This document shows, piece by piece, positions 1,918 to 29,355 of a stretch of DNA of 29,355 bases. The notes below the pieces were generated by a model that saw only the letters and a program-made list of their open reading frames with translations, did no database searches and was not told where the DNA came from. Every line of letters begins with the position of its first letter. Within the stretch, counting starts at the first letter, position 1. The position numbers and the translations under genes were made by a program. This DNA is from a virus (taxonomy: Duplodnaviria > Heunggongvirae > Uroviricota > Caudoviricetes), in IMG/VR virus record IMGVR_UViG_2541047722_000019; one strand, given 5' to 3'.

Positions 1918-1992
1918 AGTGGTTAACCTCCGGGGAAGGTGAAAAGACGTGAGGGGATAACGCAGAACAGCCGCTACTGGCGGCTGTCTGTA

Positions 1993-2089
1993 CTATGATT
2001 TGTCGCCGTACTCGCTTTTGATTTGCTCTTCAGCCTGCTCCAGCCACATCTCCAGATCGTCAGTATCGAGGGCATCAATCTCCCCCGGC
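1993..2089 (-). CDS. Frameshift extension of the tail assembly chaperone (+1/-2 frame relative to 2075..2410)
   Basis: ORF 1993..2250 overlaps the 3' end of ORF 2075..2410 in the +1 frame. Only its distal part (EIDALDTDDLEMWLEQAEEQIKSEYGDKS) looks protein-like. A GGGGG run (plus CCCCC 2082-2086) lies two codons before the upstream stop. Confidence 0.55.
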
Positions 2090-2410
2090 TGAAACCGGAA
2101 CCATCTCGCCAGCAGCCCCTGCGCCTGCGTCAGCGCCCTGGTTGCTCTCACCCATCCCCGTGATGAGCTGAAATCGTTTCTGTAACTGCAGGTAATCAGC
2201 CAGATCCATATTGTCGAGATCTTCCGGGAGAAGACCAGTACTGCGGGCAATCAGCGGTTCGTCCCAGTCTGCCGGGTTTTTGCTGATTTTGCGCACCTGC
2301 TTCAGGTCTTTTACCGTCAGGCGTTTCAGTTCAACCAGCTCAATTCTGGTGCCTGCAGCAGTGGTGAAGGGATAAGACAATTTAAAAGTATCGGATGGGG
2401 TCTGTGACAT
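2075..2410 (-). CDS. Tail assembly chaperone (lambda G / P2 E analogue)
   Basis: 111-aa ORF immediately upstream of the tape measure gene, with AGGAG 8 nt before the ATG and an overlapping downstream ORF in another frame. This is the conserved chaperone arrangement. Confidence 0.65.
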   Translation of the reverse strand: MSQTPSDTFKLSYPFTTAAGTRIELVELKRLTVKDLKQVRKISKNPADWDEPLIARSTGLLPEDLDNMDLADYLQLQKRFQLITGMGESNQGADAGAGAAGEMVPVSAGGD

Positions 2411-2485
2411 GATTGTGCTCCTGTGTAAGTTCAGGGCAGTATGTCGGGAGAAGCGCGTGACGGATATTAAAGGAGATTAAGAAGA

Positions 2486-2501
2486 AGGGGCCGGAGCCCC
2501 T
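2486..2501 (-). terminator. Short GC hairpin (AGGGGC-CGGA-GCCCCT) after ORF 2508..2789; possible attenuator
   Basis: 6-bp GC stem with 4-nt loop, 7 nt after the stop at 2508, followed on the minus strand by a pyrimidine/T-rich stretch (TCTTCTTAATCTCCTTTAAT). Confidence 0.25.
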
Positions 2502-2507
2502 GTGATG

Positions 2508-2789
2508 TCAGCAAGTGCGAAACCCCTTGCAGTTACGCAGGAAAGCGATGAGAAGCGTCTTTCCCTCAGATTTGCCGATGCCGGAGAACCAGTGGTCGGG
2601 AGGCTCCCATGCTTCAATCAAATCCGCCAGTTTGCGGGCCTTTGAACGTGTGCAGTCAATCGGGTCATTGGTTTTACGGGTATTAAAAAGGGTTTCCACC
2701 CCCGGAATATCAAGGAGGGTAAACCACGTACCATTTGACATGCCCAGTGCCGCACATCGTCCTCCTTTATCCGTCAGTTCAACACTCAC
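2508..2789 (-). CDS. Hypothetical tail-region protein (position of Mu gp41/Y)
   Basis: 93-codon ORF with GTG start 2 nt after the tube gene stop, GGGGG 6 nt upstream. The opposite-strand ORF 2515..2808 translates to low-complexity R/S-rich sequence. Confidence 0.4.
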   Translation of the reverse strand: MSVELTDKGGRCAALGMSNGTWFTLLDIPGVETLFNTRKTNDPIDCTRSKARKLADLIEAWEPPDHWFSGIGKSEGKTLLIAFLRNCKGFRTC

Positions 2790-2791
2790 CG

Positions 2792-3313
2792 TCAGCCCCC
2801 GATATTGATACGGTAGTCAGTCAGTTGATCAACACCGCCGACCCGGAAGATGTTGGCCAGATAGTCCAGTTGCAGCAGCTCTTCACCATCCAGTACCTGT
2901 CTGATATACGTGCAGGTGAAGCTACTGGAGAACTCGGCGTTCTCGTGCTGTTTGAACGTCCCCAGCGGGTTCTTCTTGAACATAATCGTCAGGAAGGTGA
3001 CCAGCGGGATTTCGTCAATCAGCCCCTGCGAGCTGTAGCGCTGGACGCTGGAACGACACTGCAGTGCCAGCGACCTGTACGGGTTCGCGGCAGACAGCAT
3101 CGCATCGCGGTAAAAGCTGTTCCATTTGATTTCGCCTTCCAGCTTGTCAAAACCAGCCGGGAGTTCCACCTTACCCACCATCCCCAGCGCCTTGTGTTCC
3201 TGCATAATCATGGAGACATCGGGGAGTTTGACTTCCTCAGCCCGTCCCAGCAGGTTAGTACCATCCAGATAGATGTTGGCATTCGTGATGCGGTTTATCT
3301 CAATCTTTGACAT
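2792..3313 (-). CDS. Tail tube protein (P2 FII / Mu M family)
   Basis: 173 aa; C-terminal CTYIRQVLDGEELLQLDYLANIFRVGGVDQLTDYRINIGG resembles contractile-tail tube proteins. Start overlaps the sheath stop (TGATG). Confidence 0.8.
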   Translation of the reverse strand: MSKIEINRITNANIYLDGTNLLGRAEEVKLPDVSMIMQEHKALGMVGKVELPAGFDKLEGEIKWNSFYRDAMLSAANPYRSLALQCRSSVQRYSSQGLIDEIPLVTFLTIMFKKNPLGTFKQHENAEFSSSFTCTYIRQVLDGEELLQLDYLANIFRVGGVDQLTDYRINIGG

Positions 3314-4740
3314 CAGTTGCCCCCTTTCAGGGTTAACAGGTATTCCGAGGTGATCTCAGTCTCAAACGTCAGTCGCTCCAGCGGCGGTGGTGGCGTATAT
3401 TTGTAGCTCAGCAACAGGTGCCCGGCGGCCAGCTCCGTCTCCGGATTGCGGGCCGGATCAAACCAGCAACGGAAGCCCAGTACCGCACCATCACCAGTCA
3501 TTTTGCGACCGTAGGCGTTGACCGACTCCGTCAGTGCATCAATCAGCGCCTGAGTAATCGGCATGTCGATGTACTGCTGGCTGAAATAACGAATGGACTC
3601 GTTGATCACATCACCGGTGCGGCGAACGTTCTCAAAGTTACGCATATGGGTGACCGTTGGCCATGCTGCCGTCCGGTTACCCCACAGACGAAGGCCGCTG
3701 CCGTAACTGCTGAATACCGTGGTGATCCCCTGTTCGTTAAGCAGGTTCACCTCACTCTGCGGGTCATCAATCATCGCGGACAGCTGGCGCTCCACGCCGG
3801 TGATCCCCAGAATCTCCTGATTGGAGGATGACCACCAGTAGCCCTTGTCCAGATCGACTCTGGCACGCAGACCTGCTGCACGCTGGCTGAGCGGCTCCAG
3901 ACGCTCTGTGTTTGTCACCGGGTCATATACCTTCACATGCGGATAGCACAGACGGACGCGGTCGGAGCTGGTATTGAAGTTGATGGTGCCTTCCGGGCCA
4001 CGACCTGCCAGAGCCTGTGCAAAGGTGGTACCGACAGGCGCATCAATGTAGGTTACCGCGCCCAGCTTCTCTGCCATGGCGATAAGCTCAACTGCGACAC
4101 TCTTCTGGGTGCAGAACACCGGCGCAATCAGAATTTTGGCGAAATAGCCGTACAGGTTGAAGCTGTCGTTAAGCAGCTTCATGCCGGTTCGGTTTCCGGC
4201 GCTGTTCACCCCGCCGATGATGTCCGCCGCAGTCACCTTCGACGGGTCCGCGTACTCATAGCTCACCTTCACGCTGCCACCGGCCTCAATAGCCTTGCCC
4301 AGGTTCGTGAGCACACCCGCCTGCGCATCAACACGGTAGTCCGTGTTCGCCGTGTGGGTGGTGCTGCCTTCACTGTTTTTCACCACCACATTAGCGACAA
4401 CCGGATGCGCCAGTCTGGCCTGCCCTGTCGATTTGTCAAAGGTAACCACCTCATCCTCGATCGCCGTTTTATGTTTCGCCGGGTCGAGGACGTTAATGAC
4501 CAGAACGGTGCCTGCACCATGGTCATAAATCGCATCCAGCGCCTGCGGAATGGTAAAGCCGGTGAACTGGCTGCCAAATGCCGCTGCGTCTTTCTCAGAC
4601 AGGCACTGTACCAGCGTATTGACATCCCCCATCGGGGCGGTACCAATCAGGCCAATAACGGCAGATTTCACCGTTTTAACCGGGCGGGCACCGTTTTCCA
4701 CCTCAATGGTTTCGGGACCATGCAGATAGTTAGCTGCCAT
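3313..4740 (-). CDS. Tail sheath protein
   Basis: 475 aa, GGAGG 7 nt upstream of ATG, immediately upstream of the tube gene. Sheath-like motifs GYWWSSSN and RLWGNRT. Confidence 0.8.
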   Translation of the reverse strand: MAANYLHGPETIEVENGARPVKTVKSAVIGLIGTAPMGDVNTLVQCLSEKDAAAFGSQFTGFTIPQALDAIYDHGAGTVLVINVLDPAKHKTAIEDEVVTFDKSTGQARLAHPVVANVVVKNSEGSTTHTANTDYRVDAQAGVLTNLGKAIEAGGSVKVSYEYADPSKVTAADIIGGVNSAGNRTGMKLLNDSFNLYGYFAKILIAPVFCTQKSVAVELIAMAEKLGAVTYIDAPVGTTFAQALAGRGPEGTINFNTSSDRVRLCYPHVKVYDPVTNTERLEPLSQRAAGLRARVDLDKGYWWSSSNQEILGITGVERQLSAMIDDPQSEVNLLNEQGITTVFSSYGSGLRLWGNRTAAWPTVTHMRNFENVRRTGDVINESIRYFSQQYIDMPITQALIDALTESVNAYGRKMTGDGAVLGFRCWFDPARNPETELAAGHLLLSYKYTPPPPLERLTFETEITSEYLLTLKGGN

Positions 4741-4981
4741 GGGTGTCCTCCGTTTTCACTTCGCTGTCACTGCTGCTTCTGCGCTTTGGTGACTGCACAG
4801 CCGGTGTGCCGGCGGGTTTAGTCTCTTCAGGTACCGGCGTCAGATGTTTCAGCGCCACCAGTACCTTCACGTAGTCATGCTCCTCCGGCAGGGAAACCGT
4901 CTTCCCCGGCCAGAGCAGGATTTCGGTTCCGTCCGACAGCGTGACGCCGCTGGCCGGGCCGGAATAGCGGTATTCTTTCAT
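4730..4981 (-). CDS. Hypothetical protein (position of Mu gp38)
   Basis: ATG at 4981 overlaps the upstream stop (TGATG). 83 aa, last cistron before the sheath gene. Confidence 0.45.
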   Translation of the reverse strand: MKEYRYSGPASGVTLSDGTEILLWPGKTVSLPEEHDYVKVLVALKHLTPVPEETKPAGTPAVQSPKRRSSSDSEVKTEDTHGS

Positions 4982-5445
4982 CACTCGCTTTCCTCATAGT
5001 TCACTTCGGTTAACAGCGGGCCGGACGGTAAATCGCTGTCTTCGATAAAGACGCTTTCAGTCGCGAAGTCGAGGGCGTACTGCCACAGCCCCCTGACTTC
5101 ACCGATAAACACCTCGCGGGTCAGCCAGATACGGCGGCGGCAGCCGGGCGGGGTGTGGCCACCGAGAATGCGGCGGACAGCATCCAGGACATTAATCGCC
5201 CCTTTTTTACCGTTGAGCTGGCGGAAGACCACCGTGACGCAGAGCTGGATAGTCTGAGACTGGATCACCGCACCGGTATCATCCGGCCTGTCAAAGCGCG
5301 AACCGGCATAGCTCAACAGCAACGCGCCAACCGGATGGTTCAGGCGATATTCAGCCGGTTTCTCCGGGAAGTACTCCACCTGCAGTTGCGGCAGCTTCTC
5401 GCGTAACCGGGCCAGTACCGCATCAAGGACGGGCAGAACGTTCAT
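4981..5445 (-). CDS. Head-tail connector / tail completion protein (Mu gp37-like by position)
   Basis: 154 aa; ATG overlaps upstream stop (TGATG). Assignment is by position between the capsid and sheath genes. Confidence 0.5.
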   Translation of the reverse strand: MNVLPVLDAVLARLREKLPQLQVEYFPEKPAEYRLNHPVGALLLSYAGSRFDRPDDTGAVIQSQTIQLCVTVVFRQLNGKKGAINVLDAVRRILGGHTPPGCRRRIWLTREVFIGEVRGLWQYALDFATESVFIEDSDLPSGPLLTEVNYEESE

Positions 5446-5891
5446 CAGTATTTCTCCAGTAAACCGTCACGACCGCCGAAAGTAGCCGGGCGACTGCGTA
5501 CACGAAACTCGCCAGGCTCAGGCACATCTTTCTGAGTGGACGGCAGCCCCAGCGTGAGCCTGTTATCACGTAACTCCCTGAGTTGCCGCAGCGCTTCTTT
5601 GTGGTCATCCTTCACCGTATCCGGGAGGTCACCTTCCGGGCGGCGGGCGTAGAGCCGGTAACGGACCAGCGTGATGGCAATGTCCCGCAGAACAGTCGGT
5701 ATCTCTGCCAGTGGCAGGATATAGCGTCCGCGCAGATGGGCATCAATCAGCTCGTCGGCATAGCGGATACAGCTGTCCACCACACGGGTATTCACTGTTG
5801 CAGGTGAGTCGAAGTCCATCTCTTCACTGGTGAGCTCGATAAGCGTCCGCTCCGGCACCTGCGCAAGCAAATCCTCCAGGGTGCAGTACAT
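5445..5891 (-). CDS. Head-tail connector protein (Mu gp36-like by position)
   Basis: The track ORF begins with TTG at 6053. The first ATG (5891) lies 1 nt after the upstream stop and gives a 148-aa protein starting MYCTLEDLLAQ. Confidence 0.5.
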   Translation of the reverse strand: MYCTLEDLLAQVPERTLIELTSEEMDFDSPATVNTRVVDSCIRYADELIDAHLRGRYILPLAEIPTVLRDIAITLVRYRLYARRPEGDLPDTVKDDHKEALRQLRELRDNRLTLGLPSTQKDVPEPGEFRVRSRPATFGGRDGLLEKY

Positions 5892-5892
5892 G

Positions 5893-6231
5893 TCACACCC
5901 CGCGCAGGATACGAATGACGTCGCCTTCACCCCCGGCTTCATCAAGTGCAATACCACAGGATTTACCGTCGCCGGACTGCGGCACGGCTCTGGCCTGAGC
6001 ATCTGACTGAACAGCCACACCACGGCTGACAGCGGCCCCGGCCTCGACAGCAATAATGCCCAGAACGCTCACCGGCGTGCTGTCGCCGGTAACAGCATCC
6101 ACTTCGGCAACCCCGAGCGCTGCGGCACCGGCTTTACAGGGGGTATTATCTGCCCCGACAAAACGCTGCTGTGCCAGTGCTGCCCCTGCCGTTACGGTTG
6201 TGATCAGAATGACCTGCTGAGTGGTTCCCAT
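5893..6231 (-). CDS. Small head-associated protein (Ala/Gly/Val-rich)
   Basis: 112 aa; ATG with AGGAGG upstream, directly after the major capsid gene. Confidence 0.55.
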   Translation of the reverse strand: MGTTQQVILITTVTAGAALAQQRFVGADNTPCKAGAAALGVAEVDAVTGDSTPVSVLGIIAVEAGAAVSRGVAVQSDAQARAVPQSGDGKSCGIALDEAGGEGDVIRILRGV

Positions 6232-15857: not shown

Positions 15858-16601
15858 ATGACGCAGACACTGAATCCGGTCATCACTGTCACCGTGTCCG
15901 GTCCTGTGGGCAGCGGTAAAAGTTACATATTGGCGCGGATAGAGGAAGTGGTGAAACAGGAATTCGGGGGCAGCGTCATTGTCGATGCTGCAGACGTAGA
16001 TGATGAGCGGCGTATGAGTGGCGATGATCTGACGACCTGGCAGAAGCCACGGGGTGGCACAGTGATCAGGCTGGAGGAATACACGGGACAGGGCCTGTTG
16101 TCATACGGCGAGGAGCGTATCTGTCGGACGAATGAGCTGCTGGATGTTATATGCCCCACGGGCCGGCAACCCTGGATACTGCCCGATGCACTGCATGCCA
16201 CCATTGCGGCACTGATGACAGTTTACGATCAGGAGCTGCTCATGAAGGAGCTACGTAAACTCACCGGTCAGCCAACAGAATGTTTTTCTGCCCCGAAGTA
16301 CGGGAAACAGGAACACATCCCGGTGAACACGCTCCCCGTTAACCAGCCTCCCCGGTTCTTCGACGAATACATTCTGACACCGGAAAATAAAGCTGAGCAC
16401 GAAGAGATCAAAGCGGCGTTGTTCCGGGAAATCAGGAAGATTGCTGAAATGCAACTGGGGGGCGGGCTGGACAGAGTGATGGCGAGAGGAGAATGGGAGT
16501 CGCTGTTTGAAAGAGTTTCCCCGGAATTACTTCCCCTCGCACTGGCTATCGGGATTATGCAGACAGCGGATAAACCTCACTTACGTTCATTAAACACGTA
16601 A
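15858..16601 (+). CDS. P-loop NTPase of unknown function
   Basis: ATG with AGAGGAGA 7 nt upstream. Walker A GPVGSGKS at residues 15-22. No resemblance to phage structural, lysis or transposition proteins that I recognise. Confidence 0.6.
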   Translation: MTQTLNPVITVTVSGPVGSGKSYILARIEEVVKQEFGGSVIVDAADVDDERRMSGDDLTTWQKPRGGTVIRLEEYTGQGLLSYGEERICRTNELLDVICPTGRQPWILPDALHATIAALMTVYDQELLMKELRKLTGQPTECFSAPKYGKQEHIPVNTLPVNQPPRFFDEYILTPENKAEHEEIKAALFREIRKIAEMQLGGGLDRVMARGEWESLFERVSPELLPLALAIGIMQTADKPHLRSLNT

Positions 16602-17386: not shown

Positions 17387-18151
17387 ATGAAAATGAAGAC
17401 ATTACCCATCGTTCCATGGATTGGTGGCAAACGTCGCCTGGCAAAACACATCCTGCCGCTGTTTCCGGCGCATGAATGTTATGTGGAGCCGTTTTGTGGG
17501 GCAGCAGCGCTCTATTTTCTTAAGACACCCGGCAAGATCGAAGTCATCAATGATATCAACGGTGAACTGGTGAATCTGTACCGGGTGGTAAAGCATCACC
17601 TGGAAGAATTTGTCCGCCAGTTCAAATGGGCGCTGGTCAGCCGTCAGATCTACAAATGGCTGCAGATCACCCCGGAAGAAACACTGACGGATATCCAGCG
17701 TGCGGCACGGTTCTACTACCTTCAGAAGCAGGCGTTTGGCGGCAAGGTGGCAGAGCACAGCTTCGGTACCTCCACCACATCCCCGCCACGCTTCAACCTG
17801 CTGCGTATTGAAGAAGAACTGTCAGCAGCACACCTGCGGCTTTCCAGAACAGTCATAGAACACATGGACTGGCAACAGTGCATTGAGCGTTATGATCGTC
17901 CGCACACACTGTTCTACTGCGACCCACCGTACCTGGGTACGGAAGGCTATGGTGTGGATTTTCCTGAAGGGAACTACTCGCGGCTGGCAGAGCTGGCCCG
18001 GTGCATCAGAGGAAAAATGATAATTTCGGTGAACGATATCCCACAGATGCGCGAGGTGTTCACTGGACTGAACATACAGACAGTGAACATCAACTACAGT
18101 CTGGCGGGGAAATCTACGCCGCGCCGTGAACTGGTAATCTGCAACTTCTGA
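17387..18151 (+). CDS. dam: N6-adenine DNA methyltransferase, Dam family (orphan, no adjacent restriction gene)
   Basis: N-terminal WIGGKRRL and VEPFCGAAALYF (SAM-binding motif I) plus FYCDPPY catalytic motif. 254 aa, close to E. coli Dam in size and motif order. Confidence 0.85.
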   Translation: MKMKTLPIVPWIGGKRRLAKHILPLFPAHECYVEPFCGAAALYFLKTPGKIEVINDINGELVNLYRVVKHHLEEFVRQFKWALVSRQIYKWLQITPEETLTDIQRAARFYYLQKQAFGGKVAEHSFGTSTTSPPRFNLLRIEEELSAAHLRLSRTVIEHMDWQQCIERYDRPHTLFYCDPPYLGTEGYGVDFPEGNYSRLAELARCIRGKMIISVNDIPQMREVFTGLNIQTVNINYSLAGKSTPRRELVICNF

Positions 18152-18267: not shown

Positions 18268-18606
18268 TCAGCCTGCGAGTTTGCTTGGTTTGGGTTGAAT
18301 GAAGACTTTGCCGACCTCAAGAATTGCCCTCCGTTGTTCGGGGCTCATTTCGTCGAATGCATCCATTAACTCTTTCTTTTCTTGTGACACATAAGGTGCA
18401 ACAACAGGCTGACTCCGCACCCCAGTAACTACATACAAAATATCTACACCGATTTCTGATAGTGCAGATAACTGCACTGCAGTAGGAGAAGTGCGATCTT
18501 TTTCCCAATCAATGAAAGTTCTCTTTGCCACACCTATAGCATCAGCCAACCCTTGCTGTGTAAGAGATAGACGCTCTCTTTCTTCTTTAATACGTAACCC
18601 GATCAT
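18268..18606 (-). CDS. Prophage repressor, HTH XRE family
   Basis: MIGLRIKEERERLSLTQQGLADAIGVAKRTFIDWEKDRTSP is a classic XRE helix-turn-helix. The track ORF starts with GTG inside the divergent ner-like gene; ATG 18606 is the likely start and has no obvious SD (possibly leaderless). Confidence 0.7.
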   Translation of the reverse strand: MIGLRIKEERERLSLTQQGLADAIGVAKRTFIDWEKDRTSPTAVQLSALSEIGVDILYVVTGVRSQPVVAPYVSQEKKELMDAFDEMSPEQRRAILEVGKVFIQPKPSKLAG

Positions 18607-18706
18607 GTGAGTTTTTCTGCACTCTTTAAGTTGACTGGTGAGGTAATCTGCACCATAATCTATCACACATAAGGCAAACATCATTGCATCAACAAAGGAG
18701 ACAACG
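18607..18706. promoter_or_regulatory. Switch region: early promoter and candidate operators
   Basis: Near-consensus sigma70 promoter on the plus strand: TTGACT (18631-18636), 17 bp, CATAAT (18654-18659). Direct repeats TCTGCAC at 18616-18622 and 18647-18653, the second inside the spacer. Confidence 0.45.
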
Positions 18707-18895
18707 ATGACTGCAGAACAAGTCAAAGCTCTCTTCCGCCAGCGCGGGATCACTTTCACCCGCTGGGCAGAAGAAAACGGCTACAACCGCAATGAGGTAT
18801 ACCGCGTTCTCAATGGGCAGACCAAAGCCCGTTACGGTAAATCCCATGAAATCGCCGTGAAGTTGGGGCTGAAATCAACAGCTCAGGCAGCCTGA
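18707..18895 (+). CDS. Ner/Cro-like small DNA-binding regulator
   Basis: 62 aa, AGGAG 6 nt upstream, first gene of the early operon divergent from the repressor. Residue pattern RQRGITFTRWAEENGYNRNEVYRVLNG parallels Mu Ner. Confidence 0.55.
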   Translation: MTAEQVKALFRQRGITFTRWAEENGYNRNEVYRVLNGQTKARYGKSHEIAVKLGLKSTAQAA

Positions 18896-18947: not shown

Positions 18948-19256
18948 ATGAGTAAGACGAATGTTTCAAGCTCCGGCAGTCGCATCCTCCGGGTACTCAA
19001 AGCGCTGCGCGGTCATGCCCTGAACGGTATTTCCAACGGTGAACTGGCGGCAGCACTGCACGAGTCACCGGCAAACATCAACCGGGCACTCAACACCCTC
19101 ATTGAAGAAGGGTTGGCCCTGAAACTGGAAAACGGGCGTTTCGCGCCGGGCATCCAGTTACTGCAGATCGCTATGGCCCACAGTAACGAGATGGCACGTG
19201 CACAGGATCGCATTAACGAAATCAACCAACGTGTCATTTCAGGTAGTCGTTTGTAA
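18948..19256 (+). CDS. Winged-helix-like small DNA-binding protein
   Basis: Segment RILRVLKALRGHALNGISNGELAAALHESPANINRALNTLIEEGL looks like a wHTH. Start taken at the second ATG (18948), which has better SD spacing to AAGAGG. Confidence 0.45.
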   Translation: MSKTNVSSSGSRILRVLKALRGHALNGISNGELAAALHESPANINRALNTLIEEGLALKLENGRFAPGIQLLQIAMAHSNEMARAQDRINEINQRVISGSRL

Positions 19257-19266
19257 GGAGTAATAA

Positions 19267-20178
19267 ATGGGACGCACCAAATCACCGATTAACACTGAAC
19301 TGAACGCCGAGGTACCGCTGTCGGATGATCTCAATGTCAGTCTGAACGCCATGACACAGCATCGTATGGAGATCATGCAGCAGTTTGGCGATGGTCAGCC
19401 CTATGAGCGTGATCGCATAGTTCATGAGGCTCGGTTTTATATGGCACAGAGCGCTGAGGCCATGCTGGAAGCAGGTAAACGACTTATTATTCTCAAAGAA
19501 AATGAACCTCACGGGGACTTTGTTGGAATTGTAGAAGAACAACTTGGTCTGCATGTGCGCGCAGCACAACGAATGATGAAAGCATCTTTGAAATACCTTT
19601 CACCAAAACTAGAGCCAAAAGCGACAACGTTGTCGCTTTTAGGTAAGGCAAAATTATTTGAACTTGTTGCTGAAGATGACGACGACCTTGCTGAACTGGC
19701 CGACGGTGGCACAGTTGCCGGACTGACGCTTGACGATGTTGATCGCATGTCAGTACGTGAATTGCGTCAGGCCCTGCGCGAAGCGCGCGAAACCAACGCA
19801 GCACAACAGCGCGTACTCGCCGACAAAAATGAAAAAATAGACTCACTCTCCACCAGACTGGAGAAGAAATCCCGTATTCAGCCACCTGAGCCTGATGAAG
19901 AGGTGAAGAAACTGCGGGCAGAAGTGACCGCGTTAGCGGTTGAGGCGGAATCTGCCATCGCCGTTCGACTGTCCAGCGCTTTTGAGACGCTGTGCGCATA
20001 TTGTGCTGAAAACATGATTGATACCCCCAGAGACTTCATGGCAGGCCTGGTCTGTCAACTGGAAAGCACAGCGCGTAGCCTGCGCTCCACATTTGACCTG
20101 CCGGACGAGCCAACAGGCAATGCAGCGCCTTCATGGCTGACTGAGCCGACGCCACAGATTAACGGGCTGGAGGCATAA
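19267..20178 (+). CDS. Hypothetical early protein, acidic with coiled-coil segments
   Basis: 303 aa, AAGGAG 6 nt upstream; stop 3 nt before the transposase ATG. No motif recognised. Confidence 0.5.
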   Translation: MGRTKSPINTELNAEVPLSDDLNVSLNAMTQHRMEIMQQFGDGQPYERDRIVHEARFYMAQSAEAMLEAGKRLIILKENEPHGDFVGIVEEQLGLHVRAAQRMMKASLKYLSPKLEPKATTLSLLGKAKLFELVAEDDDDLAELADGGTVAGLTLDDVDRMSVRELRQALREARETNAAQQRVLADKNEKIDSLSTRLEKKSRIQPPEPDEEVKKLRAEVTALAVEAESAIAVRLSSAFETLCAYCAENMIDTPRDFMAGLVCQLESTARSLRSTFDLPDEPTGNAAPSWLTEPTPQINGLEA

Positions 20179-20181
20179 CCA

Positions 20182-21951
20182 ATGAATGCTGCCCTGACTG
20201 AACGACTGGTTTATGTCGCCCGCGCGGCACGTGACGCGGGGCATGGTAAACGCGGCGCAGTATACGACGCTGCCTGTGCTGAACTTGGCATGTCCCGCGC
20301 CACTCTGCTGCGCAGGCTGAAGGAGGTATCTGTGACTGATAAACGCAAAAAACGCGCCGATGCCGGGCGCAGCGCCCTGACCCGCGACGAAGCCGCGCTG
20401 ATATCTGCCACACTGCGTGAGGCCACCCGCAAGAACGGTAAGCGTCTCTATTCCATCGCGGATGCAGTGGAAACCCTGCGGGCTAACGGCTTTATATCCG
20501 CAGGCAGAACAGATGAAACCACCGGTGAGTTTTTCCCGTTGTCCGAAGATGCCATCAGCCGAGCCCTGCGTAACTATGGCCTGCACCCGGAACAACTGGA
20601 TGCCCCTGCGCCGCATACCGAAGTGGCCAGTCTGCATCCCAATCATGTCTGGCAGATTGACGCCTCACTCTGCACGCTTTACTACCTGAGCAATGGACAT
20701 AAAGGGCTGCAGGTGATGGACAGCGCGAAGTTCTACAAGAACAAGCCCGCTAACCTTGCCCGTATCGCCAGTGACCGCGTGTGGAGTTACGAGATTACCG
20801 ACCATGCCAGCGGCTGGATTTACGTTGAGTATGTGACGGGCGCGGAATCAGGTGAGAACCTGTGTTCTGTGCTTATCAACGCCATGCAGGAGCGTGGCGG
20901 CGCAGACGTGCTGCACGGTGTGCCGAAAATACTCTATCTCGACCCCGGCTCGGCAAACACCGCGGGTATGACGAAAAACATGTGCCGCTCACTGGGCATC
21001 GACCTGATAGCGCACAAGCCGCATAACGCCCGCGCCACCGGACAGGTGGAAAAGGCGCGGGACATTATCGAACGCAAGCTGGAGCCGGGTCTGAAGTTCC
21101 GGCCGGTTCACAGTCTGGAAGAACTCAACGCGCTGGCCGCGAAATGGCGCAGCCACTTTAACGCCACGGCTGTTCACAGCCGCCACGGTAAAACCCGCAC
21201 GGATATCTGGCTGAAGATTACTGCTGAGCAGCTGAAAAAAGCGCCTTCCGTTGAGGTATGTCGTGAACTGGCTGTGGCGGCACCAGAACTCCGCAAAGTC
21301 ACGCCAAAACTTCGTGTCTCGTTCCGGGGCACTGAATTTGACGTATCAACGGTACCGGGCGTACTGGTTGGTGAAAAACTGATGATTACCCGTAACCCGT
21401 GGCGCAGCGATGTGGCACAGGTGGTTCTGACCGGTGAGGACGGCCACGAGACGTTCTTCCTGGTCGAAGAGGTCAGAAAGAACGAGTTTGGCTTTGCTGA
21501 AGGCGCGGCGGTATTTGGCGAAAGTTACAAAGCCCTGCCGGAAACCCCGGCGCAGATGGCGGCAAAAGAAACCGAAGCGCTGGTCACCGGTACAGACAAC
21601 GCCGCAGATGCAGCTGCCGCACGCAAGGCGAAGGCGCTGCCGTTCGGCGGGCGGCTTGACCCGTATAAACATATCGACGACACCACACTTCCGGCCTATA
21701 TGCCGAAGCGTGGTCAGGCCTCTGACGTACGCGGGCCGCGCACTGAACAACGTCCCATGACTTATGTGGAGGCCGCGAAAGCCCTGCGCGATAAGTTCAG
21801 CGCCAACGGCTTTACCTGGACGCCGGAACATTACCGCCAGTTAACGGCACAGTATCCGGACGGCGTACCGGAAGCCGCACTGGATGAAGTCATGGCCACG
21901 CTGACCACGCCGGCCCGCAGCAGCGTTATCAGTATTGTTAACGGCAACTGA
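20182..21951 (+). CDS. DDE transposase (retroviral-integrase fold)
   Basis: 589 aa. Catalytic triad candidates D in HVWQIDAS, D in LYLDPGS and E in GQVEKARD, with exactly 35 residues between the second D and the E. GGAGG SD. Confidence 0.85.
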   Translation: MNAALTERLVYVARAARDAGHGKRGAVYDAACAELGMSRATLLRRLKEVSVTDKRKKRADAGRSALTRDEAALISATLREATRKNGKRLYSIADAVETLRANGFISAGRTDETTGEFFPLSEDAISRALRNYGLHPEQLDAPAPHTEVASLHPNHVWQIDASLCTLYYLSNGHKGLQVMDSAKFYKNKPANLARIASDRVWSYEITDHASGWIYVEYVTGAESGENLCSVLINAMQERGGADVLHGVPKILYLDPGSANTAGMTKNMCRSLGIDLIAHKPHNARATGQVEKARDIIERKLEPGLKFRPVHSLEELNALAAKWRSHFNATAVHSRHGKTRTDIWLKITAEQLKKAPSVEVCRELAVAAPELRKVTPKLRVSFRGTEFDVSTVPGVLVGEKLMITRNPWRSDVAQVVLTGEDGHETFFLVEEVRKNEFGFAEGAAVFGESYKALPETPAQMAAKETEALVTGTDNAADAAAARKAKALPFGGRLDPYKHIDDTTLPAYMPKRGQASDVRGPRTEQRPMTYVEAAKALRDKFSANGFTWTPEHYRQLTAQYPDGVPEAALDEVMATLTTPARSSVISIVNGN

Positions 21952-21961
21952 GGAGGGAAAC

Positions 21962-23128
21962 ATGCTGGTACTGAAGCAGCAACTGAAAGAAGCCCGTATT
22001 CCACAGGCGGTGGTGGCGAGAGCTGTCGATGTTTCTGAGGCCACGCTGGCCCAGATTGTGAATCATAACGCGTGGCCCCGCACCAGCCCCGGAGAAGTGC
22101 GCCGGCGTCTTGCGTCCTGGCTGGAAAGTCAGGGGATTGATACAACGAAGAGTTTTGATGCTGTACAGGGCGCGGCCACGCCCCGTACAGCGGGTACCAC
22201 AGATAAAACGAGCCTCAGTGAGGAAGAGAATATGTTACTCAAAAAACAGGTGTTATTTCCAGCAACCAAAAAAGCGTTTGGTCTTTTCCGTGACCCGTTC
22301 GCCGACGAAGCCATGCAGGGTTCTGATGATGTGTTCACCACCCCGGATATTCGCTACGTGCGTGAGGCGTTGTACCAGACAGCCCGTCATGGTGGGTTTA
22401 TGGCCGTCATCGGTGAGTCCGGTGCGGGTAAATCCACGCTGCGCCGCGACCTGACTGAACGTATCAACCGCGAGAATGCGCCGGTAATTGTTATCGAGCC
22501 ATACATCATCGCTATGGAAGACAACGATGTGAAAGGGAAAACCCTGAAGGCAGCAGCGATTGCCGAAGCCATTATCAGTACCATCGCACCACTGGAAAGC
22601 ATCAGACGCAGTCAGGACGCCCGCTTTCGCCAGTTGCATCGCGTCCTGAAAGACAGCAGCCAGGCGGGGTTCAGCCACGTTCTGGTGATTGAGGAGGCCC
22701 ACAGTCTGCCCATTCCGACACTGAAACACCTCAAACGCTTTTTTGAGCTGGAGTCCGGTTTCAAAAAACTGCTGTCCATCGTGCTGATTGGCCAGCCGGA
22801 ACTGGCGACAAAACTGTCTGAACGCAATATGGAAGTCCGTGAAGTCGTTCAGCGCTGTGAGGTGGTCGAACTTCTGCCTCTGGACAATAACCTTGAAGAG
22901 TTTCTGACGTTCAAACTGCAACGGGCCGGTAAACAACTGACGGACATTATGGACGCCAGCGCAGTGGATGCCATACGTGCCCGCCTGAGCAATCCGGGAA
23001 GTCATCGTAAAAATATGGTCAGCCTGCTGTATCCGCTGGCCGTCAGTAACCTGGTAATAGCCGCCATGAATCTGGCCGCTGAAATCGGGGTTCCACAGGT
23101 CAACGCTGACGTTGTCAAAGGGGTTTAA
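21962..23128 (+). CDS. Transposition ATPase (MuB / TniB-like)
   Basis: Walker A GESGAGKST and Walker B-like HVLVIEEAH. ATG 21962 with GAGGAGGGA upstream (the track ORF starts at TTG 21935). Immediately downstream of the transposase. Confidence 0.8.
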   Translation: MLVLKQQLKEARIPQAVVARAVDVSEATLAQIVNHNAWPRTSPGEVRRRLASWLESQGIDTTKSFDAVQGAATPRTAGTTDKTSLSEEENMLLKKQVLFPATKKAFGLFRDPFADEAMQGSDDVFTTPDIRYVREALYQTARHGGFMAVIGESGAGKSTLRRDLTERINRENAPVIVIEPYIIAMEDNDVKGKTLKAAAIAEAIISTIAPLESIRRSQDARFRQLHRVLKDSSQAGFSHVLVIEEAHSLPIPTLKHLKRFFELESGFKKLLSIVLIGQPELATKLSERNMEVREVVQRCEVVELLPLDNNLEEFLTFKLQRAGKQLTDIMDASAVDAIRARLSNPGSHRKNMVSLLYPLAVSNLVIAAMNLAAEIGVPQVNADVVKGV

Positions 23129-23427: not shown

Positions 23428-23958
23428 ATGGCAAAAAGTACAAAAGGGGCAAAACGTATCAAAGCCGCAGCAGCACTCTGGGTGCCGGGGACACGCGAAG
23501 AGGTCATTGAGGGAATCAGACTGCTTGGTGACGCGCAACGTGAACTGGTCAGGGCTGAAACAGAAATGAATGACACCATTGGCGACATCACCGCACGTTA
23601 TGCCCCGCTCACCGAGAGCCTGAAAAAACGCATGGCCGAACTGCAGTCCGGTATTCAGACATGGTGTGAGGCACACCGTGATGAACTGACCGGCAACGGG
23701 AAGGTGAAGTTCGCTAACCTCACCACCGGCGAGGTGCAGTGGCGAAACCGTCCGCCGTCAGTCAGTATCCGTGGGGCGGATAATGTTATTGAATTACTGA
23801 GACGTCTGGGGCTTGAGCGCTTTATCCGTGTAAAGGAGGAAATAAATAAAGACGCCATCCTGAATGAAAAGGACGCCGTGAAAAATATTCCCGGTATTAC
23901 CATAAAAAGTGATATTGAGGATTTTTCAATAATTCCTTTTGAGCAGAATGTGCAGTAA
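23428..23958 (+). CDS. gam: Gam, host-nuclease inhibitor (Ku-like DNA end-binding protein)
   Basis: 176 aa with extended identity to Mu Gam as I recall it, including TEMND, WCEA.RDELT, RPPSVSIRG, LGL.RFIR.K.EINK and the C-terminal GIT.KS.IEDFSIIPFEQ. Confidence 0.9.
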   Translation: MAKSTKGAKRIKAAAALWVPGTREEVIEGIRLLGDAQRELVRAETEMNDTIGDITARYAPLTESLKKRMAELQSGIQTWCEAHRDELTGNGKVKFANLTTGEVQWRNRPPSVSIRGADNVIELLRRLGLERFIRVKEEINKDAILNEKDAVKNIPGITIKSDIEDFSIIPFEQNVQ

Positions 23959-25740: not shown

Positions 25741-25945
25741 ATCTGTTGTATGTGCCCTGTTCTGGTATTGTTTTGTCGGTTGGTGTACTGCTGAACTGCA
25801 CCGCCGTTCAGGGTTTTATTCACGTTACAGTGGTGCTGGCTACTGGATTAGCTGGTCGGTGATGTTCCTGTGCTGGCCTGTGGCGCTTCCTTTATATGTC
25901 GATTATATCGGTGGCGCAGGTAAAAGGAGCAACGATGATGACTAA
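25730..25945 (+). CDS. Small membrane protein
   Basis: 71 aa from ATG 25730 with two hydrophobic helices (VVCALFWYCFVGWC and WISWSVMFLCWPVALPLYV). The track ORF 25574..25945 has a non-protein-like N-terminal extension. Confidence 0.4.
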   Translation: MTAESVVCALFWYCFVGWCTAELHRRSGFYSRYSGAGYWISWSVMFLCWPVALPLYVDYIGGAGKRSNDDD

Positions 25946-26387
25946 ACAACGTCTTATCCAGCTCATTCATATTGCCCGTAATGAACTGGGTATGGATGAA
26001 GACACCTACCGCCAGATGTTACAGGGGCTGACCGGTAAAGCCTCAACCAAAGGAATGGATACCACACAACTAAACTGCGTGCTGGAATCCATGAAAAGGA
26101 AAGGCTTTCGCGTTAAGCCTGCCGGAAAAGCCAGCTCCGGTTTACCGCTGGATAACCATCCGCAGTCCAGGAAAATCCGTGCGCTATGGCTTGAAATGGC
26201 TGCTGCCGGCATTGTTCGTGACCGTTCAGAAAATGCATTAGCGCGGTGGATCAAGCGGGAAACGGGCATCAGCGCCCTGCGCTGGCTCAGTACTGAACAG
26301 GCAAGCAGTGTTATTGAGAAACTGAAGAAGTGGCAGCGCAGAGCTGCGGGAGTCAAACATGAGCGACCTGAATCAGTTTCGAAGTAA
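25934..26387 (+). CDS. GemA-like early protein
   Basis: ATG with AAGGAG upstream; immediately upstream of the Mor-like gene, as gemA is in Mu. Confidence 0.55.
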
Positions 26388-26757
26388 AGGGCCGGAACTC
26401 CTGGTGGAGCTGGCACAGCATACCTCTGAGACCGTTCGCGAGATTATTGATATTGAGCCCGCAATTGCCGACCAGATTGGTCAGGCCGTCGCGAACCGAA
26501 TGATGCAGGTCTGGGGCGGGCAAAACGTTTATTTCCCGATGGGCATGGTATGGAAGGTCAGTCAGCGCGACCGGGAAATCTTCAGGGAGTTTAACGGACG
26601 CAACCACCACGAACTGGCCCGCAAGTTTGGTGTTTCGCTTCAGTGGGTCTACAGCGTGGTTAAGCGGGTCAGAAAAGAAGAACTGGATCGGATGCAGGGC
26701 AGGTTGTTTGATGAAGATCTGCCAGAGGAGACGAAAGACGTTAACAAATCCAGATAA
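26359..26757 (+). CDS. mor: Mor/C-family transcriptional activator
   Basis: 132 aa; GGQNVYFP and FNGRNHHELARKFGVSLQWVYSVVKRVR match the Mor/C C-terminal DNA-binding region. Last early cistron. Confidence 0.8.
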   Translation: MSDLNQFRSKGPELLVELAQHTSETVREIIDIEPAIADQIGQAVANRMMQVWGGQNVYFPMGMVWKVSQRDREIFREFNGRNHHELARKFGVSLQWVYSVVKRVRKEELDRMQGRLFDEDLPEETKDVNKSR

Positions 26758-26871: not shown

Positions 26872-27504
26872 ATGTTTGACGTTTCGTTGTTAAATCTGCC
26901 ATGGGCAACACTGGTGACCCTGACCAGTGGCTATATTGGGTATTTTATTGCGAATGTGGGACTGAAGGATCACCACAAGCCCATTGAGGTGACTTTTTCT
27001 TCGCTGATTTTTGGCCTGACAGCAATGATGGCTTACCAGGCTGTTATGTGGGCAGGTCTGAATGCCTGGCTGGCAACACCACCAGCACTTCTGTGTGCCC
27101 TTACATGCGGTGCGTGGTGGCGCAGGTACGGTCGCAAATGGATGTACAGATTACTGTGGAATAATGATATTTCATGGTCTGACGATACCAGCTCAGCATG
27201 GCAGGCAATGTTTGATCAAACAGGCTTCAGCGTTACCGAGGTCAGAGTGATTCTTCGCGATGGTTCCGGTATGATGTCACGGCTGCCAGGGAACTTTGAA
27301 GAGTGGCCTAACGGTCCGTTTACCCTGGGGAATAAAGGCGATATGGTTCTTTACGTCACGCACAGCAGCCCTTCAGGCAGTAACGAATGGGAAGAGTATA
27401 AAGGCGTGGTTGATAAGTACTGGGGAGCTCTGGCAACCTATATTCCAGCAGATCAGATTGCCAGAGTGGAGATCAGGCGCGTTCGTGCAACGAACGATGA
27501 ATGA
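26872..27504 (+). CDS. Membrane protein with three N-terminal helices and a soluble C-terminal domain; end-proximal cargo candidate
   Basis: ATG 26872 with GGGAG 7 nt upstream; the track ORF from 26794 would start inside the terminator. Located after the terminator, as the last gene before the prophage end. Confidence 0.55.
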   Translation: MFDVSLLNLPWATLVTLTSGYIGYFIANVGLKDHHKPIEVTFSSLIFGLTAMMAYQAVMWAGLNAWLATPPALLCALTCGAWWRRYGRKWMYRLLWNNDISWSDDTSSAWQAMFDQTGFSVTEVRVILRDGSGMMSRLPGNFEEWPNGPFTLGNKGDMVLYVTHSSPSGSNEWEEYKGVVDKYWGALATYIPADQIARVEIRRVRATNDE

Positions 27505-27507
27505 TGT

Positions 27508-27669
27508 TTATTTTTTCCCTGGGGCAGGGGCTGCCGGCATAGTGGTTTTATTGGCAGAGGAAGACGATTCTCCTTTTCTACCGGAATCGCGCTCGAACGT
27601 CACGATGTGCTTGCTTTTGGGCTTTTCTGAGTAATCCAGGCTATCATGCTTATTGTTTTGAGTAGTCAT
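27508..27669 (-). CDS. Possible 53-aa hydrophilic ORF convergent with the membrane protein gene
   Basis: ATG with AGGA upstream; MTTQNNKHDSLDYSEKPKSKHIVTFERDSGRKGESSSSANKTTMPAAPAPGKK. Short and partly low-complexity, so could be spurious. Confidence 0.2.
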   Translation of the reverse strand: MTTQNNKHDSLDYSEKPKSKHIVTFERDSGRKGESSSSANKTTMPAAPAPGKK

Positions 27670-27819
27670 TGGAATCATCCTTTTTGTTGCGGGTCATGTT
27701 TCAGCAAACTCGATTCTAAGTTGCCAGGAAGGATGATTTCAATGCCCGACTTATCTATCGTATAGCGGAAAAGAATTTCAGTTCTGTTCACCAGAACCCA
27801 TGTTAACCCACTCCAATTC

Positions 27820-27865
27820 GTTATTTATCTCACGGATCCCCCTTCATTTATCTCATGTCTGATCA
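27820..27865. repeat. Prophage terminus with direct repeats (candidate transposase-binding sites)
   Basis: ATTTATCTCA occurs at 27823-27832 and 27846-27855, with a related CTTATCTATCG at ~27750. On the host-facing strand the element end reads 5'-TGATCAGACATGAGATAAATG. Confidence 0.45.
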
Positions 27866-29355
27866 CTGCCGTGAGCAGAGGCGCGCAGGATCGACCGTAG
27901 TTGTGTGGTAAACAACGACGCGTATTCTTCATAAATACGCACCGCGCGATAACCGAGGAACGGGTTAGCTTCTGCCGGAATGTTCAGATAATCAACGGGT
28001 TTATCACCGCCAATGTCCATAGTGCGCACAATAATGCTGCGTCCGTTGGCAGACTCCAGCGCCTGACAAAAAATGTTGTACAGCTCGCTTTCGCCCGGTG
28101 CACTGGTGCGATCCATATAGAGCATTTCAGTGCGGAACAAACCAACGCCTTCCGCACCATTGCCGAATGCGGCCTGCGCTTCCACGGAGTGAGCGATGTT
28201 AGCGGCAATTTCAATGCGGATACCGTCAGCGGTACGCGCTTGCTGGGTCAGCCAGACACGCTGTTGCTCACGCAGAGCGTCCTGTACGCGGGCTTCTTGC
28301 TGATAATAACGGGCCACGGATTCCCCTGGCTCAACCACAATCGCCCCTGCGTTGCCGTCGATATAAATCGTCTGATGCTGCCACGGAGTAAGGGCAGCAA
28401 TATCCACACCTACCAGCGTCGGAATGTTGAACGAACGGGCAAGGATCACAGTATGTGAGGTGGTGCCGCCACTTTTCAGTAACAGACCTTTGAGATGATT
28501 TTTATCCAGTTCGAGGAACTGGCTGGGGGTCAGTTCATCAGCCATACAAATGGCGGGCTGCGTCAGTTTGCCCGGTGCCGGGAAGCGTTGCTCACCGTAG
28601 ATTTGCTGGAGTAACTGGAAGCAGACGTCGCGTACGTCCAGGGCACGTTCTTGCAGGTAGCTGCTGCTGGAACGGGCGAACTCTTCGCAAAAGTGATTCG
28701 CACTGGCAACAATCGCTTCGGCGCAGCTTAATCCGGCGCTGACACCTGCCAGTAAATGTTCGCGCAGGGAAGTATCGCCAGCCAGGGATCGGTGCGCTTC
28801 CAGAATCGCGCTGGTAGCACCGTCGCTATCCAGCAGACGAAACTCTATGTTTTTCAGTACCAGCGTCAGACCGTTTTCCAGTGCGGATTGTTCGGCGTCA
28901 ACGCCTTTGGCTGCGGGAAGATTACCCAGCGCATTGAGATCTAAAGAAGAGATCGGCGTCAGAATGCCGCCTGCGCTACCACTGCACACGGTGCGAGCAC
29001 GGATAATTTGCGGATTCAGATTGGTCAGTGAAACCGGCAGTGGTTCCAGTTCGTCAGATTTTACTTCCGCCAGCGGTGCGTCGCAGTGGGGGAATTCATC
29101 GCGCAGCCATTGGCTTAAACGCTGGTACGCTTCCTGTTCGTCGGCCCCGGAAATCAGTAACTGGCAGTTATCGCCCACCAGCGTATCGGTGCCAATCAGC
29201 GCAAGGGCGCTTTTGGCGTTGCCCTTGCGGTCAGTGCGCAGGTTATGCCACTCAATTTGTGATGAAAAAGTATTACACAGCGTTTCAACGTGGCTTGCCG
29301 GACGCGCATGGACGCCGTTAGGTAGCTCACAAATAAATTCCACAATCAGGGCCAT
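27866..29355 (-). pseudogene. ptsA: Host PTS multiphosphoryl transfer protein (HPr-Enzyme I fusion), 5' ~1.5 kb only, interrupted by prophage insertion
   Basis: HPr signature GVHARPASH at the N-terminus, EI phospho-His motif GGTTSHTVILARSFNIPTLVG, and PEP-utilising motifs GAEGVGLFRTEMLYMDR and NPFLGYRAVRIY. The reading frame ends at ...LRASAHGSDQT*, mid-domain. Symbol is from recollection of the E. coli PtsA/FrwA N-terminus; a FryA-type paralogue is not excluded. Confidence 0.6.

Follow-up and report, generated by a model that had tools for sequence, protein, structure and literature searches.

Phage Mu (Muvirus), the BcepMu-related phages and the B3 group of Pseudomonas phages are the described systems against which the element analysed here has to be read. 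Mu integrates by DDE transposition at near-random sites, thereby inactivating genes, and it leaves a target duplication of 5 bp. BcepMu (NC_005882; genus Bcepmuvirus) is a phage of Burkholderia, and termini of the form TG…CA are typical of BcepMu-related elements with an rve transposase, as noted in the paper on phage KS10 (PMC2628397). We analysed a stretch of 29,355 nucleotides, hereafter the window, which is the IMG/VR virus record IMGVR_UViG_2541047722_000019 (Caudoviricetes). Positions 1-27865 are, by near-identity to complete copies, the right-hand ~73% of a 38.3-kb BcepMu-like transposable prophage, and positions 27866-29355 (minus strand) are the 5' fragment of ptsA, a sugar-transport gene of Escherichia coli for an frwA-type HPr-EI-EIIA multiphosphoryl transfer protein. 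We consider it highly probable that a BcepMu-type transposable myovirus was integrated here by DDE transposition and that the target inside ptsA was hit by chance. The host DNA would be the chromosome of a phylogroup-B2-like E. coli.

The junction between phage and gene lies exactly at 27865/27866. When window positions 27300-29355 were compared by megablast with 5,426 complete RefSeq E. coli genomes, every genome aligned, and solely from query base 567 (window base 27866) onwards; the 566 bases to the left of the junction were covered together with the gene in none of them. On the phage side, the alignment to independent copies of the prophage stops at 27865. A 601-bp probe across the break is uninterrupted in all 5,426 complete genomes, and the ptsA insertion is absent from every one of them. 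The empty site reads …ATGATTTTCAGG CTGCCG TGAGCAGAGG…, with CTGCCG present there as a single copy. From window base 27866 on, the sequence is 100% identical to ptsA of ATCC 11775, UTI89, APEC O1 and other B2 strains. The exact 500-aa protein that results from the junction has been deposited for E. coli HVH 59 (EQP12403.1) and is also encoded on five Logan contigs (runs SRR785324, SRR800419 and SRR800516); the junction is base-identical in the three of these contigs that were read. A search of IMG/VR returned neither of the two phage-ptsA junction patterns. The original prediction, which was made from the letters of the window, had placed a prophage inside a fusion gene for HPr and Enzyme I (EI) of the phosphotransferase system (PTS) with a junction at about 27865/27866, and had proposed an alignment to an uninterrupted allele. 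This reading is borne out: the gene is ptsA, broken within its domain for binding of phosphoenolpyruvate (PEP), the junction is exact, and the alignment to uninterrupted E. coli alleles defines the empty site.

The interrupted gene encodes the PtsA/FrwA multiphosphoryl transfer protein of the frw locus, as its domain order and its location (frwCB-pflDC on one side, fsaB-gldA on the other) demonstrate. The intact allele of E. coli ATCC 11775 has 833 codons (K-12 name ptsA, b3947; the PGAP annotation calls it 'ptsP') and stands between frwC-frwB-pflD and fsa(B)-gldA. The window holds nucleotides 1-1490 of this 2502-nt gene and ends exactly with the ATG of ptsA. Before the break there are 496 codons and two bases; codon 497 (AG|T) is completed by a T of the phage and still encodes Ser, and the following GAT CAG ACA TGA is phage DNA, as translation and junction mapping demonstrate. 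The result is a chimeric truncated open reading frame (ORF) at 27853-29355 (minus strand) of 500 codons plus stop, that is, 497 native residues followed by Asp-Gln-Thr-stop from the phage end. It is 333 codons short because the intact ATCC 11775 allele has 833 residues against its 500, close to the earlier estimate of a deficit of ~330 codons from a usual length of ~830.

In the 500-aa product Pfam recognises PTS-HPr at residues 7-84, PEP-utilisers_N at 123-237 and the mobile phospho-His domain at 265-337, and the PEP-binding domain PF02896 at 363-496 covers just profile positions 2-135 of 293. In the intact allele of ATCC 11775 the PEP-binding domain is whole (363-653), and an EIIA_2 domain follows at the C-terminus (690-829). 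The order HPr, EI-N, mobile His, PEP-binding and EIIA_2 is thus complete in the intact allele, and the window copy keeps the first three and a half of these domains. The NCBIfam model for PTS enzyme I is matched at positions 68-383 of 565, below its cut-off, as is expected for a truncated protein. When PtsA is aligned to EI structures, the offset is constant at 112 residues (PtsA 181-680 corresponds to EI 69-568), therefore the break at PtsA residue 497 corresponds to EI residue 385 and falls inside the C-terminal barrel. The fragment keeps His16 of the HPr domain, which aligns with a catalytic residue of HPr, and His301 (EI His189), and beyond the break lie Asn566/Asp567 (EI Asn454/Asp455), Cys614 (EI Cys502) and the whole EIIA domain. 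His189, Asn454/Asp455 and Cys502 of EI have established catalytic roles. The remainder of the barrel and EIIA are separated from the upstream ORF, therefore ptsA is inactivated, and from these residue assignments we would conclude that the truncated fusion protein cannot be functional.

The phage side of the junction has the structure of a transposable phage terminus. This terminus, which we call End A and which is the equivalent of the left end of BcepMu, occupies 27822-27865 (minus strand) and reads inward as 5'-TGATCAGACAT-GAGATAAAT-G…-GAGATAAAT. It combines a terminal TG/CA with two putative repeats of the transposase-binding type at nt 12-20 and 35-43 from the tip. The pattern GMGATAAAT occurs twice in the whole window, in both cases as one of the End A repeats, against a chance expectation of 0.22. 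Both features had been noticed from the letters alone: the phage-end-like direct repeats are real (ATTTATCTCA at 27823-27832 and 27846-27855, with a spacing of 23 nt), and the inward-reading strand does begin with the proposed 5'-TG, as 5'-TGATCAG. The opposite terminus, End B, can be seen in four complete copies of the prophage, and there, as at End A in the window, TG…CA termini are accompanied by repeats in inverted orientation at nt 12 and 35.

The same phage is found at many other places in E. coli. The 1,866 bases to the left of the junction have 99.9-100% identity to sequences in 119 complete genomes, where they adjoin different genes, among them those for an amino-acid permease, irp1, yfaV, yodD, gspL and a DUF905 gene. 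Eight IMG/VR contigs carry the identical 43-nt end beside seven more distinct host sequences. Taken together, the phage occupies at least 12 unrelated sites, often within genes, and the flanks have no common core sequence. Hundreds of E. coli genomes that have been sequenced contain near-identical copies; between copies at 12 or more loci, which come from four countries, there are differences of 0-2 bases in 27.9 kb. Positions 1-27865 of the window have two mismatches (3900 and 20043; 99.99% identity) to the copy in strain G749 and one mismatch to the copy in strain 3347558. It is from this near-identity to 38.3-kb copies that the window is known to hold ~73% of the prophage and to begin inside its tape-measure gene; the remaining end, which in the sister copies carries the tail fibres and a Gin-like recombinase, falls beyond window base 1.

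Four of the sister copies are complete, and each of them is a simple insertion with a clean 6-bp duplication. They lie in gabP (G749, USA), in phnP (3347558, Switzerland), in irp1 (MS20675, Australia) and at the yfaV-yfaU boundary (98194, Egypt), are 38,335-38,342 bp long, start with 5'-TGATCAGACATGAGATAAAT and finish with …ATTTATCGCGCGGCGCATCA-3'. Their target duplications are CATTCC, CCTCGC, GCAAGT and GTTGCG, 6 bp in four out of four. The next base beyond the terminal CA is not constant (c, c, g, g), therefore the phage ends at CA and the duplication measures 6 bp. Our searches of the literature returned no paper that gives the length of the BcepMu target duplication, and no description of a 6-bp duplication or of recent spread for an E. 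coli phage of the BcepMu type. The original prediction expected a 5-bp duplicate, CTGCC (27866-27870), at the other prophage end. This part has to be amended: since the sister copies show 6 bp in all four cases, the predicted target is CTGCCG (27866-27871; CGGCAG in the ptsA reading direction), which is expected to be duplicated at the other junction. The predicted other junction would read End B …GCATTTATCGCGCGGCGCATCA | CGGCAG | CCTGAAAATCATGATCCCG… (CGGCAG-CCTGAAAATCATG…), followed by fsaB and gldA.

Some traces of the other half of the gene can be found in public protein records. An exact 333-aa C-terminal remnant of PtsA (MIPMISS…), starting from Met501, 11 nt beyond the break, is on record; one of its accessions, EQP13092.1, is 689 numbers away from the 500-aa fragment EQP12403.1, and the two are probably from one genome. 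We also modelled the junction of End B, a target duplication of 5 or 6 bp and the 3' part of ptsA, and searched for exact copies of the ORFs that it would create. Remnants with internal starts of 333, 330 and 326 aa exist in the records, and the two fusion ORFs that are specific to a 5-bp duplication were absent from this exact-sequence lookup, a pattern that is weakly consistent with a duplication of 6 bp.

Based on the established chemistry of DDE enzymes the following course of events can be proposed. The 589-aa rve transposase would bind the two G(A/C)GATAAAT sites that each terminus has at nt 12 and 35 and, together with an AAA+ B-like ATPase for target capture, would join the 3'-CA ends to a target cut with a 6-bp stagger. 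Gap repair would then leave the 38.3-kb prophage between 6-bp duplications, here the predicted CGGCAG. Several points weigh against taking this reading as complete. Because the window contains neither End B nor the 3' part of ptsA, the duplication of 6 bp is inferred for the ptsA insertion, and so is the lack of a deletion or rearrangement beside it. The binding of the repeats by the transposase, the activity of the ptsA copy and the effect on fsaB-gldA are inferred as well. Furthermore, the 333-aa remnant is weak evidence, as it would be called after any disruption of ptsA and is present on 69 contigs.

These points leave room, first of all, for an insertion that was not simple: End B could now stand at a different locus, or the transposition could have been associated with a deletion or inversion beside ptsA. 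Phages of the Mu type can cause such adjacent deletions and inversions, and the other junction is outside the data; in the assemblies the prophage is cut off at its tape-measure gene. However, all four complete sister copies are simple insertions, and the 333-aa remnant that begins 11 nt beyond the break probably belongs to the same genome, so that we regard a rearranged insertion as unlikely. Secondly, the junction could be artificial: a chimera produced in assembly, or the DNA of a virion with packaged host DNA at its end. In favour of this, virions of the Mu type have variable host sequence at their termini, and the window comes from a draft assembly. Yet the identical junction recurs on five contigs from at least three sequencing runs and in an NCBI assembly, and the break falls exactly at the terminal phage nucleotide that the four complete genomes define. 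In addition, the host side of a 58.8-kb Logan contig runs on for over 10 kb with the gene order of the normal chromosome, via frwC, frwB, pflD, pflC and frwD to ppc. Packaged host DNA is thereby ruled out and a chimera is very unlikely, which leaves an artefact of either kind with a very small probability.

Site-specific integration by an integrase into an attachment site inside ptsA has a precedent in some E. coli prophages that integrate within coding genes, but it is refuted by the multiplicity of insertion sites. None of the 5,426 complete genomes has anything inserted at the ptsA site, and the at least 12 flanks occupied by this same phage lack the core that such a site would provide. A tyrosine or serine integrase of the attachment-site type is missing from the PGAP annotation of the 99.99%-identical complete copies, which list a DDE transposase and a Gin-like invertase instead. 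The weakest alternative holds that this ptsA allele is short by nature or carries a nonsense mutation, and that phage-like sequence just happens to follow it. It has nothing in its favour apart from the presence of a stop codon and is rejected, as the homology to every other allele stops abruptly at 27866, phage DNA supplies the final three codons together with the stop, and all 5,426 genomes read through the break, which also excludes the possibility, named in the original prediction, that the gene naturally ends at ...SAHGSDQT.

Random transposition into ptsA, the reading that we prefer, agrees with the kinship of the phage. By its transposase, synteny and end structure we assign the element to the transposable (Mu-like sensu lato) phages of the BcepMu-like group, and the proposal that a transposable phage had inserted at random is upheld by its transposition module as well as by the unrelated sites. 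The transposase is 98.1% identical to that of Escherichia phage PhiKM in tblastn, 68% identical to BcepMu gp09 and 56% identical to transposase A of Pseudomonas phage B3; phage Mu is not among the 69 matches of this search at E ≤ 1e-5. A DDE transposase and an AAA+ ATPase for target DNA are encoded side by side (20182-21951 and 21962-23128). The likeness to BcepMu, whose type of rve transposase is related to Tn552 and IS1604, extends over 98% of the length of the transposase and over the gene order, with Mor and GemA beside the left end, an outward early operon, divergent immunity genes, lysis, head, P2-like contractile tail and tail fibres. The termini agree as well: all four ends compared start with TGA, conform to TG…CA and have G(A/C)GATA(A/T)(A/T)T at nt 12 and 35. 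In contrast to the Burkholderia phage, the E. coli phage has a Gam homologue, a Dam-like methylase and genes for 210-aa and 53-aa proteins, whereas BcepMu has 364 non-coding bases between Mor and the end, and an acyltransferase where the E. coli phage has a Gin-type invertible tail-fibre segment. The genus Bcepmuvirus is delimited by ~70% or more nucleotide identity with BcepMu across the genome (ICTV). Megablast with 24.9 kb of the prophage detects PhiKM, KP12 and Phi06_2974 B and, with the search confined to this mode, no nucleotide similarity to BcepMu, therefore the phage would stand outside this genus by nucleotide criteria.

Among deposited phages PhiKM (PQ738613.1), which comes from a uropathogenic E. 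coli, is the closest at the nucleotide level, with 96.6% identity across 90% of window positions 3000-27865, and the two essentially form one phage species group, although the PhiKM record has 34.7 kb and the prophage copies 38.3 kb. In the searchable literature no publication on PhiKM was found. Escherichia phage Phi06_2974 B and Klebsiella phage KP12 follow with ~85% nucleotide identity. Pseudomonas phage B3, whose transposase is matched over its full length, differs in being a siphovirus of Pseudomonas with structural genes that have no similarity to ours at the DNA level; the early operon of the B3-like phages is inverted relative to Mu in the same way as that of the E. coli phage (PMC5977238). 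With Mu the element shares DDE transposition with gene inactivation at near-random sites, TG…CA ends, the A-plus-B pair, homologues of Gam, GemA and Mor, and a Gin-type invertible tail-fibre segment. It differs from Mu in the inverted early operon, so that Mor, rather than the repressor, lies beside the end, and in the target duplication of 6 bp instead of 5 bp. Mu has the repressor and ner at its left end. As similarity to MuA is not detectable, the early operon runs the other way round and 6 bp are duplicated, the phage is not a Muvirus.

The gene content of the prophage follows the same plan. Late genes on the minus strand encode a tape-measure fragment, sheath, tube, head proteins, portal, terminase and lysis functions; the immunity and early regions on the plus strand read towards End A. 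Within the latter, small helix-turn-helix (HTH) or DNA-binding proteins (18707-18895 and 18948-19256, plus strand; PGAP, Pfam, phrog) stand at the start of the early operon and are followed by a DUF3102 protein (19267-20178, plus strand; Pfam). The 589-aa DDE (rve) transposase at 20182-21951 (plus strand) matches PF00665 and the transposase family phrog_310 (E = 2e-147). The AAA+ ATPase or DNA transposition protein at 21962-23128 (plus strand), named 'ExeA family' by PGAP, would be the functional equivalent of MuB, as it matches PF13401 (AAA_22) and phrog_296 (E = 1.5e-93) and occupies the position of BcepMu gp08. Downstream on the same strand are a Gam host-nuclease inhibitor (23428-23958; PF07352, E = 8e-41), a GemA-like protein (25938-26387; PF06252, E = 1e-40) and a Mor-family activator of middle or late transcription (26359-26757; PF08765, E = 1e-43). 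A candidate cI-type HTH repressor at 18268-18759 (minus strand) diverges from the early operon and is supported by HTH_3, Phage_CI_repr, phrog repressor families and PGAP. Next to the immunity region lies a Dam-like N6-adenine methyltransferase (17387-18151, plus strand; PF02086; type II/orphan methyltransferase in PADLOC, E = 6e-113).

Three further genes have less clear roles. Between Mor and the phage end there is a predicted membrane protein of 210 aa (26872-27504, plus strand; phrog_12870, of unknown function) with hydrophobic N-terminal segments and a soluble C-terminal part. Beside it a Lys/Ser-rich ORF of 53 aa (27508-27669, minus strand), present as WP_001571575.1 in all four complete copies, reads inward from the phage end. 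Neither protein has a match in Pfam, NCBIfam or PADLOC, and both genes are possible accessory cargo, perhaps for exclusion or defence. The third is a 247-aa ORF (15858-16601, plus strand; phrog_3787, of unknown function), which is flanked by the lysis genes and the immunity region and is transcribed against the direction of the late genes; it has weak P-loop-like N-terminal matches and a marginal PADLOC match to mad8 (E = 0.005).

Directly upstream of the 53-aa ORF we observed a 16-nt inverted repeat (27667-27682 and 27729-27744, 94% complementary, 46 nt apart), which overlaps a sigma-70-like site on the minus strand (27742-27713, 10 of 12 positions) and may be an operator or a hairpin with a regulatory role close to the phage end. 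Of this end, the last ~145 bp (27712-27856, including both ATTTATCTCA repeats) have a match of ~90% to an unannotated stretch on ~65 conjugative E. coli plasmids of the IncF/ColV type, where it lies between IS1 and a LysR-family gene (in pAPEC-O2-211A-ColV, 3501-3644 of the fetched record). The stretch looks like the solitary fossil end of a related transposable phage.

The window starts ~1.9 kb into the 3.2-kb tape-measure gene (window 1-1918), and the SRR785324 Logan contig stops within ~60 bp of this point. No tandem repeat that could cause the assembly break was found there. Window positions 1-6000 match a median of 2 places in each genome, with a maximum of 8, therefore the assemblies probably break at tail genes that are shared with other prophages. 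In the complete copies the Gin-like recombinase has 190 aa and stands beside an invertible tail-fibre segment. The segment with the tail-fibre and assembly genes has opposite orientations in G749 (35706-39685 of the fetched record), where the tail-fibre gene is annotated as 'partial', and in 3347558 (35143-39326), where it is intact. This indicates an active invertible host-range switch similar to the G segment of Mu.

What the insertion does to the host can in part be judged from earlier work on this locus. The genes ptsA, fsaB and gldA form a single operon, and a ptsA deletion is viable, ptsA being dispensable (PMC6643234). A kan cassette with an outward promoter in ptsA, as in the Keio ptsA mutant, raised the expression of fsaB 123-fold and that of gldA 28-fold (PMC6643234). 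The late genes and gin of the phage read in the same direction as ptsA in the annotated sister copies, and fsaB and gldA should now lie 38 kb from the ptsA promoter, downstream of these genes, so that a change in their expression is expected. A more far-reaching interpretation would combine consistent 6-bp duplications, and with them a stagger wider than the 5 bp of MuA, with active movement through extraintestinal E. coli and with late and gin transcription that possibly alters dihydroxyacetone and glycerol metabolism as the Keio kan cassette does. We put it forward tentatively, as its joint probability is rather low.

That a transposable phage mutates a dispensable gene by insertion is ordinary textbook biology and is already known in kind. 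The points for which we found no documentation in the searchable literature are the 6-bp duplication and the very recent spread that is implied by near-identical copies at multiple loci. In annotations, 'multiphosphoryl transfer protein 2' of 500 aa ought to be labelled as a disrupted ptsA, the boundary of the prophage can be defined to the base at 27865, and tools that assume the 5-bp duplication of Mu would shift the boundaries of BcepMu-type E. coli phages by one base. One of the complete copies interrupts irp1, the gene of the yersiniabactin synthase HMWP1, in MS20675 (NZ_CP082056.1), an isolate from cerebrospinal fluid; therefore the phage can knock out a virulence-associated siderophore gene. 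Near-identical copies are scattered through clinical E. coli, the one in irp1 included, and the phage is therefore a live source of gene knock-outs in those lineages.

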